Of a stretch of DNA of 64,000 bases, positions 15,393-44,688 are shown piece by piece. This DNA comes from Candidatus Magasanikiibacteriota bacterium (GTDB lineage: Bacteria; Patescibacteriota; Patescibacteriia; Magasanikbacterales; UBA922). Under the pieces are notes generated by a model. The model ran no database searches and was not told the DNA's origin. It saw nothing but the letters and a program-made list of their open reading frames with translations. Where the stretch lies: NCBI GenBank assembly GCA_018651085.1, contig JABIEQ010000014.1:97807-161806 (forward strand). Direction: 5' to 3'. Each line of letters begins with the position of its first letter. Within the stretch, counting starts at the first letter, position 1. A program made the position numbers and the translations under genes.

Positions 15393-16151
15393 TTATTCAA
15401 GAAATAATAATGAAGCCATGACTAAAATCCCAGCAACGAATGCAATAAGTTGCAAAATAGACTTTCCAACACGAGTCTCTCTGTGTAATTCAGGAATAAG
15501 GTCGCTTCCCGCAATATACAAAAATGTTCCAATAGCAAATGGGACTAAAAATGATTCAAGTGAACTAACACGACTTCCCAGAAACAACGCAATGAGTGTT
15601 CCAGCTAGTGCCACAAGGCCACTTAAAAAATTAAATAGTAATGCCTTCTTTTTCGTAAATCCACCATGCAAAAGTATTCCGTAATCTCCAATCTCTTGTG
15701 GAAGCTCATGAAGAAATACAGCAAGCGTTGTTGCAACCCCCACAGGAATACTCACAAGGTACGCAATACCAATAATTAATCCATCAATAAAGTTATGGAT
15801 TCCATCTCCAACAAGATTAATCTTTGCAAAAGCATGTGCGTGTCCATCTTCTCCTGGCGCATGATGACAATGTCGCCATTGGATAACCTTTTCAACAATA
15901 AATAAGAAAATAATACCAAGAAGAATATATACTGATGTCTGCATGCTAAAACCCATTTCTTCAACATGCTCAGGAAATAAATGGAAAAATACATCACCAA
16001 ATAAAGCTCCTGCAGAAAAACTTACTAAATAAATAAGCATCGTTTTAAGACTTTTTGTTTTAAGAGAAAACGTCAAAAGCCCAATAAGAGAAACAAGACT
16101 TACTAAAACGACACTTGAAATTGCATATATATAAAGCATAAAATATATCAT
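15393..16151 (-). CDS. zupT: ZIP-family zinc/metal transporter (ZupT-like)
   Basis: Multi-TM ORF with a His-rich loop HCHHAPGEDGHAHAF and the ZIP signature HELPQEIGD. I place the start at the internal ATG at 16151, overlapping the fur-family stop as TAATG. Confidence 0.8.
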   Translation of the reverse strand: MIYFMLYIYAISSVVLVSLVSLIGLLTFSLKTKSLKTMLIYLVSFSAGALFGDVFFHLFPEHVEEMGFSMQTSVYILLGIIFLFIVEKVIQWRHCHHAPGEDGHAHAFAKINLVGDGIHNFIDGLIIGIAYLVSIPVGVATTLAVFLHELPQEIGDYGILLHGGFTKKKALLFNFLSGLVALAGTLIALFLGSRVSSLESFLVPFAIGTFLYIAGSDLIPELHRETRVGKSILQLIAFVAGILVMASLLFLE

Positions 16152-17208: not shown

Positions 17209-17258
17209 TCAAAAAAAATTATAACATAACAAAATAGATATGCCCATAAAAAAATACC
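17209..17258. repeat. Copy 2 of the roughly 46-nt direct repeat
   Basis: See copy 1. This copy overlaps the minus-strand terminator hairpin. Confidence 0.55.
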
Positions 17259-17280
17259 CCTACTCATAGAGTAAGGGTAT
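17247..17280 (-). terminator. Rho-independent terminator, minus strand
   Basis: ATACCCTTACTC-tat-GAGTAGGGGTAT hairpin followed by TTTTTTT on the minus strand. It lies inside the 115-aa ORF 17025-17372 from the ORF track. Confidence 0.65.
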
Positions 17281-17484
17281 TTAATATATTCCTTTTCGTC
17301 CTGCAACAATCTTTCAAATATGGACTCATCAGTACCAAACACATTGGTATAAGGCGAGAGTGGGTAGAACACTCTCTGGGGGGGGGATCTCCTTGCTAGG
17401 AGAAAAAAAGAACACTAGGCTCTTCCATGTCTACCGTCCTTTTACAGGACCATGAAAGAGCGCCTCACGCGCCGGCATTGCCGG

Positions 17485-17703
17485 TCAGATGTTGGGGGCC
17501 TCGCCGCCGACATCACTCAAAGAAAAAATAATGATCATCGCCGTTGCACGCTCCAAATGTCGTTTCACTAATACTCCTTGGTCCATTATTATAACCCACA
17601 GACCGGAGGGAAAGCGCGGAGGCCTAGACCGCTTCGAAAGGCATTTCAGATAGTAATCATTCCTATATAAAATGCTTTTCGAAGGGTTTCTAATACCATC
17701 CAT
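17485..17703 (-). CDS. GC-rich small-protein family, member D (72 aa from the first ATG; N-terminally short relative to A and B)
   Basis: MDGIRNPSKSILYRNDYYLKCLS...GLWVIIMDQGVLVKRHLER aligns with the D-G ... [YW][MV]V[WL] ... ER core of the ORFs at 24306, 26018 and 44600. GC is about 50% against about 35% background. A consensus promoter abuts the ATG, so the mRNA is leaderless. Confidence 0.55.
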   Translation of the reverse strand: MDGIRNPSKSILYRNDYYLKCLSKRSRPPRFPSGLWVIIMDQGVLVKRHLERATAMIIIFSLSDVGGEAPNI

Positions 17704-17712
17704 AGACAAAAA

Positions 17713-17741
17713 AATATATCATATAATGAAAGAATTGTCAA
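17713..17741 (-). promoter_or_regulatory. Sigma70-type promoter TTGACA-17nt-TATATT driving member D
   Basis: Read on the minus strand: TTGACAattctttcattatatgaTATATT, then 9 nt, then ATG. Confidence 0.6.
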
Positions 17742-24261: not shown

Positions 24262-24290
24262 TTGACAATTAAGGCAAAAATAACTAATAT
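24262..24290 (+). promoter_or_regulatory. Sigma70-type promoter TTGACA-17nt-TAATAT driving member A
   Basis: TTGACAattaaggcaaaaataacTAATAT, then AAGGAG adjacent to the ATG at 24306. Confidence 0.6.
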
Positions 24291-24305
24291 CAGAATATAA
24301 GGAGT

Positions 24306-24797
24306 ATGCGATCTTCAACCCACAACCGAAGGTGTACCGTGAAGAGGTTCATGGATTACCACAAGTTCCCGGTGAGGCAAATCAGACAAGCTCGTCTGAG
24401 ATTCAACATCAAGAGACAGGGCGGTATCTGGTACCACGTCAGAGGATGGTACCCACGAAGAATGGTAGGAAAGGAAGAACAGCACCTCGAAGTGTTCTGT
24501 TCTCAACCATACATGATGTGGATGATCGAGAACAACTGCACGGACAAAACCTTGGCAAGCCAGTGGAGCGATGGCAAGGACTACTATGGAGAAATCTACC
24601 TGTACCAAGAAGGACAACAACAACTTAGTGTCTACATGGTCTGGGTGAATCCACAGTTTGGGCAAAAAGAGGAAAGACCTCTTCCCCCAAAAAAGGACTT
24701 GCAACTCATCGCAGCAAAGCGAGCAACAAGAGGTCCAGGAAGTGACATGTGGGAATACATCAACAACAACCACCCACGTGAAGAACTCGACGACTGA
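24306..24797 (+). CDS. GC-rich small-protein family, member A (163 aa, basic N-terminus)
   Basis: About 49% GC. It shares WY-x3-R-x-VG-x3-H and SVYMVWVNP...KEER with member B (WYKADRVGRNPH..., HVWMVLDKEDKER). Its own promoter is upstream and a terminator is downstream. The overlapping ORFs on the other frames and strand are GC artefacts. Confidence 0.7.
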   Translation: MRSSTHNRRCTVKRFMDYHKFPVRQIRQARLRFNIKRQGGIWYHVRGWYPRRMVGKEEQHLEVFCSQPYMMWMIENNCTDKTLASQWSDGKDYYGEIYLYQEGQQQLSVYMVWVNPQFGQKEERPLPPKKDLQLIAAKRATRGPGSDMWEYINNNHPREELDD

Positions 24798-24846
24798 GAA
24801 GATCGCGCCCCGAGGGACATTGTCCCCCGGGTTGCGAATAATATTA

Positions 24847-24873
24847 ATAAAACCGGCAAGTAGCCGGTTTTAT
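24847..24873. terminator. Rho-independent terminator
   Basis: AACCGGC-aagta-GCCGGTT hairpin followed by TTTAT, preceded by a GGGACAtTGTCCC palindrome. Confidence 0.75.
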
Positions 24874-24895
24874 CATGTATACAAACAATGTAGAT

Positions 24896-25021
24896 CTATG
24901 AACTCGCTTCACCACCTTCAGACTTATTCGCCTGACAACTTCCACCACAACAAGGTTTACACGCACCACAGTCACACATCATGTCAGCTTCTTTTTCAGT
25001 ATTACAGTTTGAACACATCAT
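24896..25021 (-). CDS. Small Cys-rich peptide, metallothionein-like (41 aa, 9 Cys); not in the ORF track
   Basis: My own translation gives MMCSNCNTEKEADMMCDCGACKPCCGGSCQANKSEGGEASS. It is convergent with member A. Confidence 0.4.
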   Translation of the reverse strand: MMCSNCNTEKEADMMCDCGACKPCCGGSCQANKSEGGEASS

Positions 25022-25098
25022 AAAGATATATGTTACTTAATATATTAAACTCCCTTTGTATGTATTATTATAAAGGGTTTTATCTAACACATCAAGAG

Positions 25099-25566
25099 TT
25101 AAGATAATGCCTTATTTTTAAGCATTTCTACAAAACTATCCACATCCTTTTTTTGATTTACTTGAAATACAAATGAAAATTTCCCTTTTGATGAGTCGAT
25201 CATAAGTGTTGGTTGTTTTCCTTCTTTAAAATCAACCTCAGTAATGTCAGAAAAAGACAATTGAGCATTCTTTTTATGAGCAGACAACATACCTTCTGGT
25301 CCTTTTTCCATTAAAGATTTTTCATTTCGAGCAAGTTCTTCTTGAAACTTTCTAATAATCGGTGTTGCAGCAGCTATTCCAACGGCGGCTCCGGCTCCCC
25401 CAACAACACCACCACCCGTAGTAGCACTATTAATATGACTAAAGGCTTCTGGTAATCCTCCAACATTCCCGGTATATATAATGGATAATCCAGTGTCAGA
25501 AAGCACGAGACTAAACACCTTTTTAAACCCAAACGACAGTTTCCTTACAACTTTATGAAGATACAT
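25099..25566 (-). CDS. Hypothetical protein with a Gly-rich segment and a PH/GRAM-like C-terminal region
   Basis: A 155-aa ORF with native AT-rich composition, embedded between GC-rich cassettes A and B. Confidence 0.5.
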   Translation of the reverse strand: MYLHKVVRKLSFGFKKVFSLVLSDTGLSIIYTGNVGGLPEAFSHINSATTGGGVVGGAGAAVGIAAATPIIRKFQEELARNEKSLMEKGPEGMLSAHKKNAQLSFSDITEVDFKEGKQPTLMIDSSKGKFSFVFQVNQKKDVDSFVEMLKNKALS

Positions 25567-25660
25567 ATATCGTATGCATAAAAATAACCTTTCTATAGTA
25601 ACATAAAAATATGATATGCATAAAAATAGCTTTACTTAGCCAAATAAATGCAATACACTA

Positions 25661-25689
25661 TTGACAAAGTCATTATTTTGTGCTATAGT
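25661..25689 (+). promoter_or_regulatory. Sigma70-type promoter TTGACA-17nt-TATAGT driving member B
   Basis: TTGACAaagtcattattttgtgcTATAGT. Confidence 0.65.
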
Positions 25690-25696
25690 GTGTTGT

Positions 25697-26017
25697 TACA
25701 ATGAATGATTCGACAGGACCAATGGGTGACGTACATTAATACGTACTCTATTGGTTCTGTTGAATCAAAGAAGACCGAGATTTCTACGATGCGAATAAAG
25801 CATACCAATCGTAGACCTTACTCGCTGTATTTCCATACCGTCACTCAAGACAGGAATGGATAAATACACCGGATGCAGGAAAAAATCTCACAACCAATCA
25901 AGAATATCCCCCCTTATGTATCTCGCTCGATACAAAAGGCATCCTAGAAGGCATGACAATCTAGGTATAAGTCGGATGCCCGTCTGGTAAACGGGACTAC
26001 CTCCCTCGGAGGTTATC
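25697..26017 (+). other. Structured 5' leader of about 320 nt (possible cis-regulatory RNA) upstream of member B
   Basis: About 45% GC, with several perfect hairpins (CTACGAT..ATCGTAG; CCCGT-ctggtaaa-ACGGG). GGAGG sits 7 nt before the ATG and no convincing ORF is present. Confidence 0.4.
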
Positions 26018-26374
26018 ATGAGCACGAAGGTTACAGGAGAAGAGCTCAAAGAGATGTTCGAAGGAATGAACCCTCCCGAAGGTTCACCAACATGGACAAA
26101 ATGGGACCTTTTCCTAGGCATCCTCGGAAAAGAGTACCAATGGTACAAAGCAGATCGAGTGGGAAGAAACCCCCACGATTTCTTAGTCTCGTGGATGAGC
26201 GTCGACGGAAATCTCATCGAAATCGAGTCCTCCGCCCCAGACTTCAGTTGGGAGCTCCAGGTCATGAGGAGCAACCAACCTCACGTGTGGATGGTCCTCG
26301 ACAAAGAAGACAAAGAACGTGAAGAAAGCGCGTTCAGCATCCTCGCCGAGATCATCAACGCTCGTCTCACATGA
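26018..26374 (+). CDS. GC-rich small-protein family, member B (118 aa, acidic)
   Basis: About 52% GC, with a GGAGG SD. It shares the core motifs with A, C and D. Confidence 0.7.
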   Translation: MSTKVTGEELKEMFEGMNPPEGSPTWTKWDLFLGILGKEYQWYKADRVGRNPHDFLVSWMSVDGNLIEIESSAPDFSWELQVMRSNQPHVWMVLDKEDKEREESAFSILAEIINARLT

Positions 26375-26560
26375 CCAACTGCTTAGCTCAAAGCATAAAT
26401 TGAGCGGGTAGACGTATAGCTGTATTGCTGACAATCCTTGTCAGTCCGATACAGATACGTTGCCGAGTACCCGTGAACATCCTTCACAAAAACTCGGTCC
26501 TTCCAAAATATCTTTCTCTCTATAAAAAAGAGGAAGCCATTTCAAAAGGCCTAGAAATAA

Positions 26561-26592
26561 AAAAGACATTGCTCACACAATGTCTTTTTTTA
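26561..26592. terminator. Rho-independent terminator, bidirectional (ends cassette B and atpC)
   Basis: AGACATTG-ctcaca-CAATGTCT hairpin flanked by an A-run and a T-run. Confidence 0.75.
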
Positions 26593-26606: not shown

Positions 26607-27020
26607 TTAAACATTCCGATACTTTCTCCCAACACTTGAACGTACAATTTCTTTTTCTATCTTTGCTTGAAGCCGTGCAAAATCGATATCAAGCATTTTT
26701 TCTTCTTTTGCAAATAATTCTTCTGCTCGTTTTTTCGCAAGTTCAGCGCGATCAACATCAATCTCATTTGATCGTTCAGCAGTATCAGCTAATACATAGA
26801 CAATACTATTTGGTCGAATTTCAACCACTCCGGTAGAAATAGCCAAATTCACCACATCATTACCTTTATGGATATTCAATTCTCCAGCACGAAGAGCAGA
26901 CACAACAGGAATATGCTCTGGGTATACGGTAATCGCACCAGCTTGAGTTGGAATTGTCACTTTATCAATTGAGTCTTTATATAAGACTCCTTGAGGGGTA
27001 ACAATCGTAAAAGTAATCAT
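26607..27020 (-). CDS. atpC: ATP synthase F1 epsilon subunit
   Basis: A 137-aa ORF, last gene of the atp operon, with a beta-sandwich followed by helical hairpin. Confidence 0.8.
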   Translation of the reverse strand: MITFTIVTPQGVLYKDSIDKVTIPTQAGAITVYPEHIPVVSALRAGELNIHKGNDVVNLAISTGVVEIRPNSIVYVLADTAERSNEIDVDRAELAKKRAEELFAKEEKMLDIDFARLQAKIEKEIVRSSVGRKYRNV

Positions 27021-36738: not shown

Positions 36739-37002
36739 ATATATTATATATCATGATATACTTTGTATCGAGACAACGTTGGTACACTTAAACGAGTTCC
36801 CATACGAAAGTATGGTCCTAAAAGCTGCCGCCTGTAACAAGGTGTGAAAGCACCACAGGAAAGGTGAACGCTGTATAGGTACGCCAACTGGGGGCTGAGG
36901 GAATTGTTTCGTATGGTCAAAGGCACTATCACGGAAGAACACTTACCAAAGAACCTTTTTGCACCACGAGAGAGCGTCTTCTCCCCCACGTCTCTCTCAT
37001 TT
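36739..37002. ncRNA. Candidate structured ncRNA of unidentified class, in a GC-rich intergenic block
   Basis: A 264-nt gap between two co-oriented genes at about 50% GC. It carries a perfect hairpin with a GAAA loop (CCATAC-GAAA-GTATGG), an alternative pairing partner TTTCGTATGG 90 nt downstream, and a GAGAGAG..CTCTCTC stem. No family-like ORF is present. Confidence 0.35.
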
Positions 37003-37671
37003 TTATGAAACGACAATAACAAATTCTCCTTTCGCGGGAATATTCATTTCAAGAATTTCAGACATTGTTCCACGATATATTGTTTCAAACTTTTTTGTTA
37101 ATTCTCGACACACACAAACTTGTTTTTTTTCATCAAGTCCCTCGGCTAATTGCTTGAGGGCTTTTTCTATCCTATGACACGATTCATAAAACACGACCGT
37201 ATGTGTTGTAGCACAAACCCTATCAAAAAATTGCTGTCGACGTTTCTTATGAGGTGGAAATCCTAAAAACGAAAATGAATCTAACCGAAAGCCACTAATT
37301 GATAGGGCTGTTACAACGGCTGAAGCACCAGGGATAGGCACAATAGACACATCAGGAAGTTCATGCCTAACCGCGAACACTAGTTCACCACCAGGATCAC
37401 TAATTCCGGGAGTCCCAGCATCAGTAACAAGCGCAACATCATCTCCTTGGCGAAGCATATCCATAATCTCATCCGTTTTCTTTTGAGCACTATGCTGATG
37501 GTAGCTTCTTGCATGAGTATCAATATTATATCGAGAGAGTAATCTTGATGTCACTCGTGTATCTTCACAAAAAATCACTTCAACTGCTTGAAGTGTATCA
37601 ATGGCTCTCTCAGAAAAATCCCCAAGATTTCCAATAGGCGTAGCGACGATATATAAAGTAGGATTAGTCAT
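37003..37671 (-). CDS. rsmI: 16S rRNA (cytidine1402-2'-O)-methyltransferase
   Basis: Tetrapyrrole-methylase fold with YIVATPIGNLGD and VTDAGTPGISDPG. Start taken at MTNPTLY. Confidence 0.85.
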   Translation of the reverse strand: MTNPTLYIVATPIGNLGDFSERAIDTLQAVEVIFCEDTRVTSRLLSRYNIDTHARSYHQHSAQKKTDEIMDMLRQGDDVALVTDAGTPGISDPGGELVFAVRHELPDVSIVPIPGASAVVTALSISGFRLDSFSFLGFPPHKKRRQQFFDRVCATTHTVVFYESCHRIEKALKQLAEGLDEKKQVCVCRELTKKFETIYRGTMSEILEMNIPAKGEFVIVVS

Positions 37672-43252: not shown

Positions 43253-44188
43253 ATGTCAGAACCCAAAGAGAAAAACCTATCTGTCATTTTTTTTGGGACC
43301 CATATTTTTGCAACAGTAATATTACAAGCACTTATTGATCATCCACATATTGATGTACAAAAAGTGATCACCCAACCTGATAGACCAGTAGGAAGAAAAA
43401 AGATCATTACCCCTCCTCCAGTAAAACTATTAGCACAAAAACATACCATTCCTGTTGATCAACCAGCATCACTAAAAACATATACGTTAGAAGAAACGTA
43501 CGATATTGGTATTACCGCACAATACGGTGGCCTTATCCCCCCTCATATATTAGATAGTCCAACGCATAATATTTTAAATGTCCATACATCACTCCTTCCT
43601 AAATATCGTGGTGCAACCCCAATTCAGTCAGCATTGATTCACGGAGACGATAAAACAGGTGTGACCATTATGAAAATGGGGGTTGGTCTTGATACAGGAC
43701 CTATTCTTCTTCAAAAAAGTATCGACATAGATAAAGATGATACATACCCAATGCTAGACAAAAAACTTGCACAAATAGGTACGAAGGCACTTATTGAAGC
43801 AATATTTCCATATGCAGAAGGAACATTACTACCACAAAACCAAGATGAACGTTTGGTAAGTCACTGCAAGCAGTTTTCACGAGAAGATGGTCGCATTGAT
43901 TGGAATAAATCAGCAAAAGAAATCTATAATCAATATAGAGGCATGACCCCATGGCCTGGTATTTGGACAACGTGGAACAATAAACGTCTTAAACTTATAG
44001 ATATACAACCAATAAAAGATATTGATATACCTTCAGGGAAAGTACATAGAGAAGAAAACATTTTATATATTGGTTGCACAAATGGAGCCATTAGTGTTCT
44101 TCATATTCAGTTAGAAGGAAAACCACAAATGGATATAAAAGCCTTCATTACCGGATATAAACATATTGAAGGAGAAAAAGTAGTATAA
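43253..44188 (+). CDS. fmt: Methionyl-tRNA formyltransferase
   Basis: Formyltransferase N-terminal domain (HTSLLPKYRG) plus C-terminal domain. Confidence 0.9.
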   Translation: MSEPKEKNLSVIFFGTHIFATVILQALIDHPHIDVQKVITQPDRPVGRKKIITPPPVKLLAQKHTIPVDQPASLKTYTLEETYDIGITAQYGGLIPPHILDSPTHNILNVHTSLLPKYRGATPIQSALIHGDDKTGVTIMKMGVGLDTGPILLQKSIDIDKDDTYPMLDKKLAQIGTKALIEAIFPYAEGTLLPQNQDERLVSHCKQFSREDGRIDWNKSAKEIYNQYRGMTPWPGIWTTWNNKRLKLIDIQPIKDIDIPSGKVHREENILYIGCTNGAISVLHIQLEGKPQMDIKAFITGYKHIEGEKVV

Positions 44189-44208
44189 AAAAACACCCCT
44201 TAAGGGTG
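44184..44208 (-). terminator. Rho-independent terminator of cassette C, minus strand
   Basis: CACCC-ttaag-GGGTG followed by TTTTTTT on the minus strand. It overlaps the fmt stop codon. Confidence 0.7.
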
Positions 44209-44300
44209 AACAAATGTCTGTGCAGGAACCCCCAAGCCGCTACACAGACGGTGTGGGGTTGAGGGTTTCTGCGAATTGCGGGCTGTTCGAGCGGCCGACC

Positions 44301-44600
44301 TTAGTTGGTCGGGTATTCTTTCAGCTGACGCAAAGATCTTTCCGTGAAGTCCCACGGACGCCGGGGATTGCTCATGAAAACAACCCAGTACGTCTCAGTG
44401 ACCTTGCCAGTGTCGTCACCATCGCCAGTGTCGTCACCATCGTCAATGTCGTCACCATCGTCAATGTCGAAAGTCATCGCGCCCTCTGCACGACAAAAAT
44501 CGATGAGATCATCATGATTAAGAGGGAAATCTCTCTCCCTCAACACGATGACTCTGGCAGGGCAAGGACCGGACGAAACCGGCCGGAAATCAGCGAACAT
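44301..44600 (-). CDS. GC-rich small-protein family, member C (99 aa, acidic, with a DDGDD repeat tract)
   Basis: AGGAGG SD 7 nt before the ATG, about 55% GC. TYWVVFMSNPRRPWDFTER aligns with the family core. The opposite-strand 136-aa ORF is rejected. Confidence 0.65.
   Translation of the reverse strand: MFADFRPVSSGPCPARVIVLRERDFPLNHDDLIDFCRAEGAMTFDIDDGDDIDDGDDTGDGDDTGKVTETYWVVFMSNPRRPWDFTERSLRQLKEYPTN
44401..44469. repeat. Tandem 18-bp repeat, about 3.5 copies of GTCGTCACCATCG(C/T)CA(G/A)T
   Basis: Read directly from the sequence. It encodes (D-D-G-D-D-I/T)n within member C. Confidence 0.85.
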
Positions 44601-44641
44601 AACGTGCCTCCTATGGGCTTCTAGAGAAAAGCTGACAAAAA

Positions 44642-44670
44642 AATATACCACAAAAACCCTCTTTTGTCAA
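44642..44670 (-). promoter_or_regulatory. Sigma70-type promoter TTGACA-17nt-TATATT driving member C
   Basis: Read on the minus strand: TTGACAaaagagggtttttgtggTATATT. The -35 lies inside the CCCTCTT..AAGAGGG palindrome. Confidence 0.6.
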
Positions 44671-44688
44671 GAGGGTAAAGCTAAAAAC

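Follow-up and report, generated by a model that had tools for sequence, protein, structure and literature searches.

Four GC-rich islands in the window

The analysed stretch comprises 64,000 nucleotides (nt) of contig JABIEQ010000014.1 from the genome of a marine Candidatus Magasanikbacteria bacterium of the candidate phyla radiation (CPR); it is referred to as the window and carries most of its genes on the minus strand. Against its guanine-plus-cytosine (GC) content of 36.6%, the four largest GC islands, detected with 120-nt windows, reach 47-50% GC and are located at positions 17315-17667, 24291-24924, 25885-26506 and 44161-44682. These islands correspond to four short open reading frames (ORFs), termed D, A, B and C, respectively, in a preliminary description of this DNA, which placed them correctly and for which GC contents of 45.2% (D), 48.4% (A), 50.7% (B) and 52.0% (C) were calculated. 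Each of the four loci appears to be a lineage-specific GC-rich segment that lies in an intergenic region and is preceded by a near-perfect predicted sigma-70 promoter. The window was additionally scanned for transfer RNA and transfer-messenger RNA (tmRNA) genes with ARAGORN and for Rfam families at gathering score, and none of either kind was found. The features of the cassettes A and B, the lengths of proteins being given in amino acids (aa) and isoelectric points as pI, are as follows:

24262..24290, plus strand: promoter of cassette A, TTGACA-17 nt-TAATAT, 10/12 consensus positions
24306..24797, plus strand: ORF A, orphan of 163 aa with a basic N-terminal part of 52 aa and an acidic remainder, pI of the whole protein 9.4
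24805..24836, plus strand: GC-rich hairpin directly 3' of the stop codon of ORF A, marking where the insert ends (sequence and minimum free energy (MFE) fold)
24845..24875, bidirectional: terminator of cassette A and of the convergent native gene for a Cys-rich peptide, 13-bp stem with an A-run and a T-run at its two sides
25661..25689, plus strand: promoter of cassette B, TTGACA-17 nt-TGcTATAGT (extended -10), consensus match
25698..26017, plus strand: 5' leader of cassette B, about 320 nt, highly structured (folding z = -6.0), without three-base periodicity (p=0.32) and without an Rfam match
26018..26374, plus strand: ORF B, orphan of 118 aa, acidic (pI 4.6), six Trp residues, GGAGG 5 nt upstream of the ATG
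26375..26558, plus strand: 3' untranslated region (UTR) of cassette B with several long hairpins, folding z = -6.6 (186 nt), without periodicity
26559..26590, bidirectional: terminator of cassette B and of the convergent atp operon (atpC ends at 26607), aligning with the atpC terminators of the related loci L013, L016 and L017

ORFs A and B are coding sequences with a common codon dialect

The native genes of the window show GC contents of 0.51, 0.36 and 0.24 at the first, second and third codon positions (GC1, GC2 and GC3), and the GC3 value lies between 0.15 and 0.35 in every native gene, ribosomal proteins included. The respective values of ORF A are 0.50, 0.37 and 0.58, and ORF B has a GC3 of 0.62; GC1 and GC2 of both ORFs are native-like. 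The deviation is thus confined to the third position, at which the frequency of T is 0.10-0.12 in A and B versus 0.44 in native genes, with C-ending codons replacing T-ending ones and A-ending codons being retained. The bias is specific for the reading frame, as the ratio of NNC to NNT codons is 41:9 in A and 29:4 in B, compared with about 1:1 in the other frames, and it is apparent for individual codon pairs of A and B, such as ATC:ATT (13:0), TAC:TAT (11:1) and CAC:CAT (7:0). A three-base periodicity was detected in ORF A (p=0.002) as well as in ORF B (p=2e-5). With a codon table trained on A, only the annotated frame of B obtained a positive score, and a table trained on B likewise selected the frame of A. 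Compared with dinucleotide shuffles, the length of ORF A exceeds that of all shuffles (p<0.001), and ORF B is longer than expected as well (p about 0.02-0.03). Periodicity, frame-specific bias towards C-ending codons, reciprocal codon models and ORF length accordingly identify A and B as genuine protein-coding sequences written in one common foreign codon dialect. The dialect already holds in codons 16-52 of ORF A (NNC:NNT 11:1), which belong to the Arg-rich, basic N-terminus, and the 111-aa gene call of the Prokaryotic Genome Annotation Pipeline (PGAP) for A is therefore too short.

The two coding regions differ in the folding of their transcripts. The ORF of A folds like an ordinary mRNA (z = -1.2), whereas the whole transcript of B yielded a z of -8.7, the lower end of the range of -4.6 to -8.7 obtained for the whole transcripts of the cassettes. 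According to the MFE fold, the leader of B forms a stem of about 29 bp (25706-25767), which begins 8-9 nt downstream of the predicted start of transcription, and a hairpin at 25999-26013 (ACCUCC-CUC-GGAGGU) in which the Shine-Dalgarno sequence is paired. A search of the cassette segments against the 4227 families of Rfam 15, with a permissive E value of up to 10, returned only chance-level matches to unrelated microRNA and small RNA models.

Cassettes A and B interrupt a compact ancestral gene block

Syntenic loci were reached in related genomes by means of AtpC homologues, those of L013 and L016 being 69% and 74% identical to AtpC of the window; the loci obtained bear on the gene block around A and B, and the comparison covers these two cassettes. 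A scan of genome contigs with AtpC returned only two distant loci of the Ignavibacteria type. As described earlier, two native AT-rich genes lie between A and B, and one of them codes for a Cys-rich peptide of 41 aa. Both genes lie outside the cassettes:

24896..25021, minus strand: native gene for a Cys-rich peptide of 41 aa, GC3 0.29
25099..25566, minus strand: native PH-like gene, 155 aa, GC3 0.23

The homologue of the PH-like gene follows atpC at a distance of roughly 110-130 nt in L013 and L016, versus 1040 nt in the window, where cassette B occupies the gap. In the two relatives the gap contains a terminator, followed by a TTGnnA-17-TATACT promoter, and the alignment places the boundaries of the B insert at roughly 25640-26545. 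The Cys-rich peptide is conserved beside an ABC exporter in L014 and L015 (48% identity, E=1.7e-8), and its gene precedes the ABC gene by about 170 nt in L014, versus 822 nt in the window, where cassette A occupies the gap. A and B are missing from the matching syntenic block of three relatives. Judged by this gene order, A and B are insertions into an ancestral compact block consisting of atpC, the PH-like gene, the gene for the Cys-rich peptide and the ABC exporter. A, B and C run antisense to the gene on either side, and the genes that flank the cassettes, namely the atp operon, the ABC exporter, fmt and a Wzy-like gene, are housekeeping genes rather than components of a prophage.

Two further observations concern the native genes of this block. 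A 42-nt tandem duplication (74% identity) at 25551-25634 spans the start codon and the 5' region of the PH-like gene; it is located at the left edge of the B insert and might represent a scar of insertion. The Cys-rich peptide, which contains nine Cys residues and has its counterpart at 11207-11293 of L014, always adjoins the ABC exporter (ABC_membrane and ABC_tran domains) and may be the precursor of a bacteriocin-like, ribosomally synthesised and post-translationally modified peptide that is encoded together with its exporter, or a metal-binding peptide.

Loci C and D are of different nature

The features assigned to the remaining two islands are:

44642..44670, minus strand: promoter of cassette C, TTGACA-17 nt-TGgTATATT, consensus match
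44301..44600, minus strand: ORF C, 99 aa, acidic (pI 4.2), AGGAGG 6 nt upstream, coding status uncertain
44194..44208, minus strand: terminator of cassette C, after a GC-rich 3' UTR (44209-44300)
17713..17741, minus strand: promoter of cassette D, TTGACA-17 nt-TGaTATATT, consensus match
17245..17706, minus strand: transcript D of about 460 nt, probable structured non-coding RNA (ncRNA), z = -5.6, with a 5' hairpin at 17632-17684
17252..17282, minus strand: terminator of cassette D, 14-bp stem followed by a T-run

ORF C contains in-frame tandem repeats of 9 and 18 nt (44390-44469), which encode units of the DIDDGDD type. The periodicity of ORF C is carried by this repeat, and its codon usage is unlike that of A and B. 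The ORF was annotated by gene callers in several assemblies, and its whole transcript has a folding z of -4.7. Locus C is probably another orphan gene, unrelated to the other three. An ORF of 136 aa is located antisense to ORF C at 44214-44624 on the plus strand; it is co-directional with fmt and the Wzy-like gene, is preceded by a weak AAGGG and could conceivably be the real reading frame of island C.

The 72-aa ORF D of the preliminary description (17485-17703) sits within transcript D and lacks the properties of a coding sequence: periodicity was absent (p=0.61), no Shine-Dalgarno sequence precedes the ATG at 17703, and the ratio of NNC to NNT codons is native-like (8:14). Gene callers proposed at most 33 aa at this locus, PGAP missed it altogether, and transcript D had no match in Rfam. 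Since coding signals and a Shine-Dalgarno sequence are missing, the NNC:NNT ratio is native-like and the fold is stable, D probably specifies a structured RNA of about 460 nt and not a protein. The interpretation of the four ORFs as genes thus held for A and B, did not hold for D and is uncertain for C; a structured RNA, named by the same description as the alternative, fits D and does not fit the ORFs of A and B. A type I toxin-antitoxin system was considered for D and not supported at the level of the peptide, as the hydrophobic run (AMIIIF) of the 27-aa GTG-initiated ORF behind an AAGGAG is far below the length of a membrane helix.

Another GC island of 250 nt (47% GC) was noted at 36744-37022 on the minus strand, flanked by an rsmI-like gene and a NUDIX gene. 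Its codon-position composition is completely flat (chi2 0.6) and no Rfam match was found for it; the island possibly encodes a small ncRNA or acts as a leader.

Promoters and terminators of the cassettes

A TTGACA hexamer, a spacer of 17 nt and a -10 hexamer were identified upstream of each of A, B, C and D. A perfect TTGACA-17 nt-TATAnT promoter had been claimed for all four, which is correct for B, C and D, whose -10 hexamers are moreover extended by TGn; the promoter of A retains the TTGACA hexamer and the 17-nt spacer, but its -10 hexamer is TAATAT without the extension. For the strict pattern TTGACA-N14-TGn-TATAnT, 0.01 occurrences are expected in the 64 kb and three were counted, namely those at B, C and D.

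A terminator hairpin of its own had also been attributed to each cassette. This applies to C and D, whereas A and B share bidirectional terminators with convergent native genes. A terminator also follows the homologous gene for the Cys-rich peptide in L014. Because these terminators are bidirectional and common to the convergent native genes, the cassettes A and B are not fully self-contained.

The four loci do not constitute a gene family

According to the preliminary description, A-D were homologous members of a dispersed multigene family with a common core of about 60 aa. In favour of this proposal, all four loci are GC-rich, small and located behind consensus promoters, both A and B are rich in Trp and written in the same codon dialect, and a loose WY....VG similarity connects A with B. 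The comparisons of the sequences were nevertheless negative throughout. The four pairs analysed by BLASTP (A-B, A-C, B-C and B-D) gave E values of 0.57-2.4, HHalign assigned probabilities of 0.1-0.3% to all six pairs, and at the DNA level the cassettes have nothing in common beyond the promoter hexamers. Of the two protein motifs that had been reported, the first as originally written occurs in neither A nor B and the second in B only; only a regular expression loosened post hoc fits all four. Additionally, the codon usage of C and D is unlike that of A and B, and D is devoid of coding signal. Since the HHalign probabilities lie far under the 50% that had been set as the limit for the family, this reading is refuted at the level of sequence, and homology of the four loci has become very improbable. 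What endured of the picture of dispersed, recently acquired and independently promoted genes concerns A and B, which combine a foreign third codon position and near-consensus promoters with absence from the gene block of the relatives.

Orphan status and distribution of the cassettes

A search of 5.8 billion clustered proteins with A and B recovered only the two proteins themselves, namely the hypothetical proteins HN726_03540 and HN726_03530 of a marine Candidatus Magasanikbacteria metagenome-assembled genome. A HMMER scan of 1.84 billion representative sequences with A returned only A itself and a junk ORF with Arg/Pro repeats. No relatives of the cassettes were found in viral contigs or in phage and plasmid records, and no homologue in about 0.9 Mb of related CPR loci. 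Scans with Pfam, PHROGs, PADLOC and NCBIfam yielded nothing significant (best PHROG E = 0.11-0.14), PADLOC matching no defence-system profile to any of A-D, and the sequence search of the PDB gave only a non-significant match of B to snaclec or C-type-lectin-like proteins (E=0.09). Diversity-generating retroelements, retrons, IS605-type RNAs, integron cassettes, group I and II introns and tmRNA were considered and rejected, as neither a reverse transcriptase or transposase gene nearby nor a pair of template and variable repeats was present, nor an attC-like array or a match by Rfam or ARAGORN.

Cassette B is carried by 21 contigs from JGI, ENA, NCBI and Logan, the contigs of these assemblies reaching 452 kb, and the nine contigs compared by sequence are 99.99-100% identical to the window (one gap and one mismatch). 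Two independent NCBI assemblies are interrupted within cassette A (at 24557 in L002 and at 24606 in L003), and the ENA contig L101 ends just after ORF C (about 44286), which may hint at strain-level variation in the presence of these segments. The ends of two low-coverage contigs of sample ERZ508555 (L005, 1-262, and L103, 1-339) mismatch the window and are probably chimeric rather than strain variants. Such breaks, together with the abrupt change of composition at the edges of the islands, could be taken to mean that the islands are artefacts of assembly or binning derived from chimeric reads of a GC-richer organism. The same junctions recur at 99.99-100% identity in the independent JGI, ENA, NCBI and Logan assemblies, and the probability of an artefact is considered close to nil.

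Related architectures in other CPR genomes

The association of consensus promoters with GC-rich segments was analysed in AT-rich CPR loci amounting to 472 kb including the window, with a GC-rich segment being defined as 300 nt of at least 9 percentage points above the respective locus. A GC-rich segment follows 11 of the 64 TTGACA-N16-18-TAnnnT sites, versus a background of 3.9% (4.4-fold, p=3.5e-5). The csrA gene of L014, from a Magasanikbacteria genome of 38% GC, is an example (15598-15892, minus strand), as it has a GC3 of 0.75 and is located behind a TTGACA-17-TATATT promoter. The promoter of this csrA gene reads TTGACAATTAAGG...TATATT, and its first 13 bases are the same as in the promoter of cassette A. 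Further cases include a 55-aa orphan behind a full extended-consensus promoter in L024 (1600-1915, minus strand), genes with a GC3 of 0.85-0.95 in the 40% GC genome of L049 (12013-12637 and 16851-18417), GC-rich ORFs in L050 (15448, 19594 and 20040), among them a gene for a STAS-domain protein, and examples in L032. Most of the GC-rich ORFs behind consensus promoters in other CPR genomes are orphans too. The examples in L014, L024, L049, L050 and L032 thus demonstrate that the architecture recurs sporadically in CPR genomes. With four cassettes in 64 kb, the window is unusually rich in them; the 10 kb past its right end contain neither a cassette nor an additional GC island.

Interpretation and alternative explanations

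Taken together, the four loci are best regarded as real compositional islands that represent four different things, the cassettes A-D being independent, moron-like foreign units and not paralogues of each other; we assign a probability of roughly 0.65 to this reading. A and B would have been acquired horizontally as moron-like accessory units from an unsampled donor, which was probably one and the same for both. The promoter sequences suggest that the cassettes are transcribed strongly and constitutively. The mRNA of B may be stabilised by its 5' stem-loop and its 3' hairpins, and its translation may be gated by the hairpin that sequesters the Shine-Dalgarno sequence. The products are predicted to be small soluble cytoplasmic proteins, as signal peptides and transmembrane segments were not recognised by eye; protein A would have a basic arm at its N-terminus, whose richness in Arg predicts binding of nucleic acids, followed by an acidic body, and proteins B and C would be acidic.

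Several observations weigh against this interpretation. The AAGGAG of ORF A is only 1 nt away from the ATG at 24306, leaving M1 or M16 as the start, and the Shine-Dalgarno sequence of B is buried in a hairpin, so that the translation signals of both genes are weaker than they first appeared. The lengths of the ORFs of C (p = 0.04-0.09) and D (p = 0.05-0.08) are near chance in comparison with shuffles. AlphaFold models computed from single sequences are of low confidence (pLDDT 41 and 50), and a Foldseek search with the model of B, itself of low confidence, gave no match with a TM score above 0.3. The copies of the cassettes are nearly identical, and the nearest relative shows only 74% AtpC identity. 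Neither a donor nor a mobility gene, a target-site duplication, terminal repeats or ends shared among the cassettes were found, and the argument for a horizontal origin accordingly consists of composition and synteny.

It is conceivable that the islands are genes for structured ncRNAs, the classic interpretation of long GC-rich intergenic stretches in AT-rich genomes, and that the ORFs are by-products of a low frequency of stop codons. This view is consistent with the folding of the whole transcripts and of the UTRs of B (z of about -6 and -6.6), with the properties of D, with the near-chance lengths of ORFs C and D, with the long antisense ORFs that are present in A and B too, and with the paired Shine-Dalgarno sequence of B. 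No Rfam family matched even at permissive thresholds, however, the ORF of A folds no better than shuffles, and the frame-specific codon bias of A and B goes beyond what RNA structure explains. In surveys of GC-rich intergenic regions (GC-IGRs), moreover, most of the long regions turned out to be ORFs (2948/4714; PMC11109978). As an account of all four islands this view is unlikely; it probably applies to D and to the UTRs of B, may apply to C and does not fit the ORFs of A and B.

Native genes with extremely high expression, whose GC3 was raised in situ by selection for efficient translation or stable mRNA instead of being inherited from a donor, could produce a comparable picture. The full-consensus promoters and the native-like GC1 and GC2 of A and B agree with such a process, and C-ending pyrimidine codons are said to be a universal translational optimum, a notion ascribed to Sharp et al. 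2005. The csrA gene of L014 is a bona fide gene of the same architecture, and consensus promoters are tied to GC-rich downstream segments across the CPR loci. Codon adaptation of native genes was nonetheless rejected because the ribosomal-protein genes of the window, like its ATP-synthase genes, show no such bias (GC3 0.16-0.28). A and B are also absent from the syntenic block of three relatives and have no homologues anywhere, and ORF C, the orphan of L024 and csrA have, besides C-ending codons, an excess of G-ending ones, a pattern that is no translational optimum in an AT-rich genome. The probability that the cassettes arose in this manner is considered low, and the reading of A and B as inserted foreign genes is retained.

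If this reading is correct, a streamlined genome of the episymbiont type harbours a few foreign orphan genes under strong promoters, together with one or more structured RNAs of a kind not known so far. Accessory functions confined to this lineage may be encoded at these loci, which also affect genome annotation, as the shortened gene call of A and the omission of D illustrate. A new multigene family is not revealed and a function is not assigned by these data. The link between full-consensus promoters and GC-rich orphans in several CPR genomes offers a modest but testable clue to the uptake and expression of new genes in such genomes. Speculatively, AT-rich CPR genomes may carry a recurrent, hitherto undescribed class of loci, composed of a consensus promoter plus a GC-rich orphan and placed antisense between housekeeping genes, although we would give this generalisation only a small chance. 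It is similarly doubtful, but conceivable, that such a class would spread by an unknown delivery mechanism or be born from structured RNA loci. On the same speculative view, B (about 900 nt) and D (about 460 nt) of the window may represent novel RNAs of large size that are structured or have a dual function.

Comparison with known systems

Morons, a concept associated with Hendrix and Juhala, are reportedly extra genes with their own promoter and terminator and a deviating base composition that are located between genes adjacent in related genomes. The cassettes resemble the morons of temperate phages in that a putative sigma-70 promoter lies directly upstream of each of them, followed by a single small ORF and a terminator, and in that their composition is unlike that of the neighbouring genes. 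A and B are also located between genes that are adjacent in relatives, with no obvious tie to the function of these neighbours. In contrast to phage morons, the cassettes are not part of a prophage and have no detected phage relatives, A and B borrow the bidirectional terminators of their neighbours, and the inserts exceed the host genome in GC content.

The ncRNAs of GC-IGRs described by the Breaker laboratory (PMC11109978) are comparable to D, to the UTRs of B and possibly to C, all of which are long, GC-rich and intergenic, are bordered by a promoter and a terminator and have strongly negative folding z values. They differ from these ncRNAs by the lack of a match in the 4227 Rfam families and of homologues, and A and B contain ORFs with coding signals at the codon level. 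Cassette B additionally recalls dual-function RNAs and highly stabilised mRNAs, such as RNAIII/hld, SgrS/SgrT and the ompA mRNA with its stabilising 5' stem-loop, as its ORF is accompanied by large non-coding parts that are structured, with a stem-loop close to the 5' end and several hairpins on the 3' side. The resemblance is architectural alone, since the ORF of B, with 118 aa, is far longer than the known ORFs of dual-function small RNAs.

ORFan genes and small genomic islets gained by horizontal transfer share with A and B the atypical GC3 and codon usage, the confinement to one lineage and the absence of detectable homologues. The cassettes are distinguished from such islets in that each consists of a single gene without integrase, tRNA target or direct repeats, that their promoters are unusually near to the consensus, and that A and B, separated by 1.2 kb with native genes between them, share one codon dialect.

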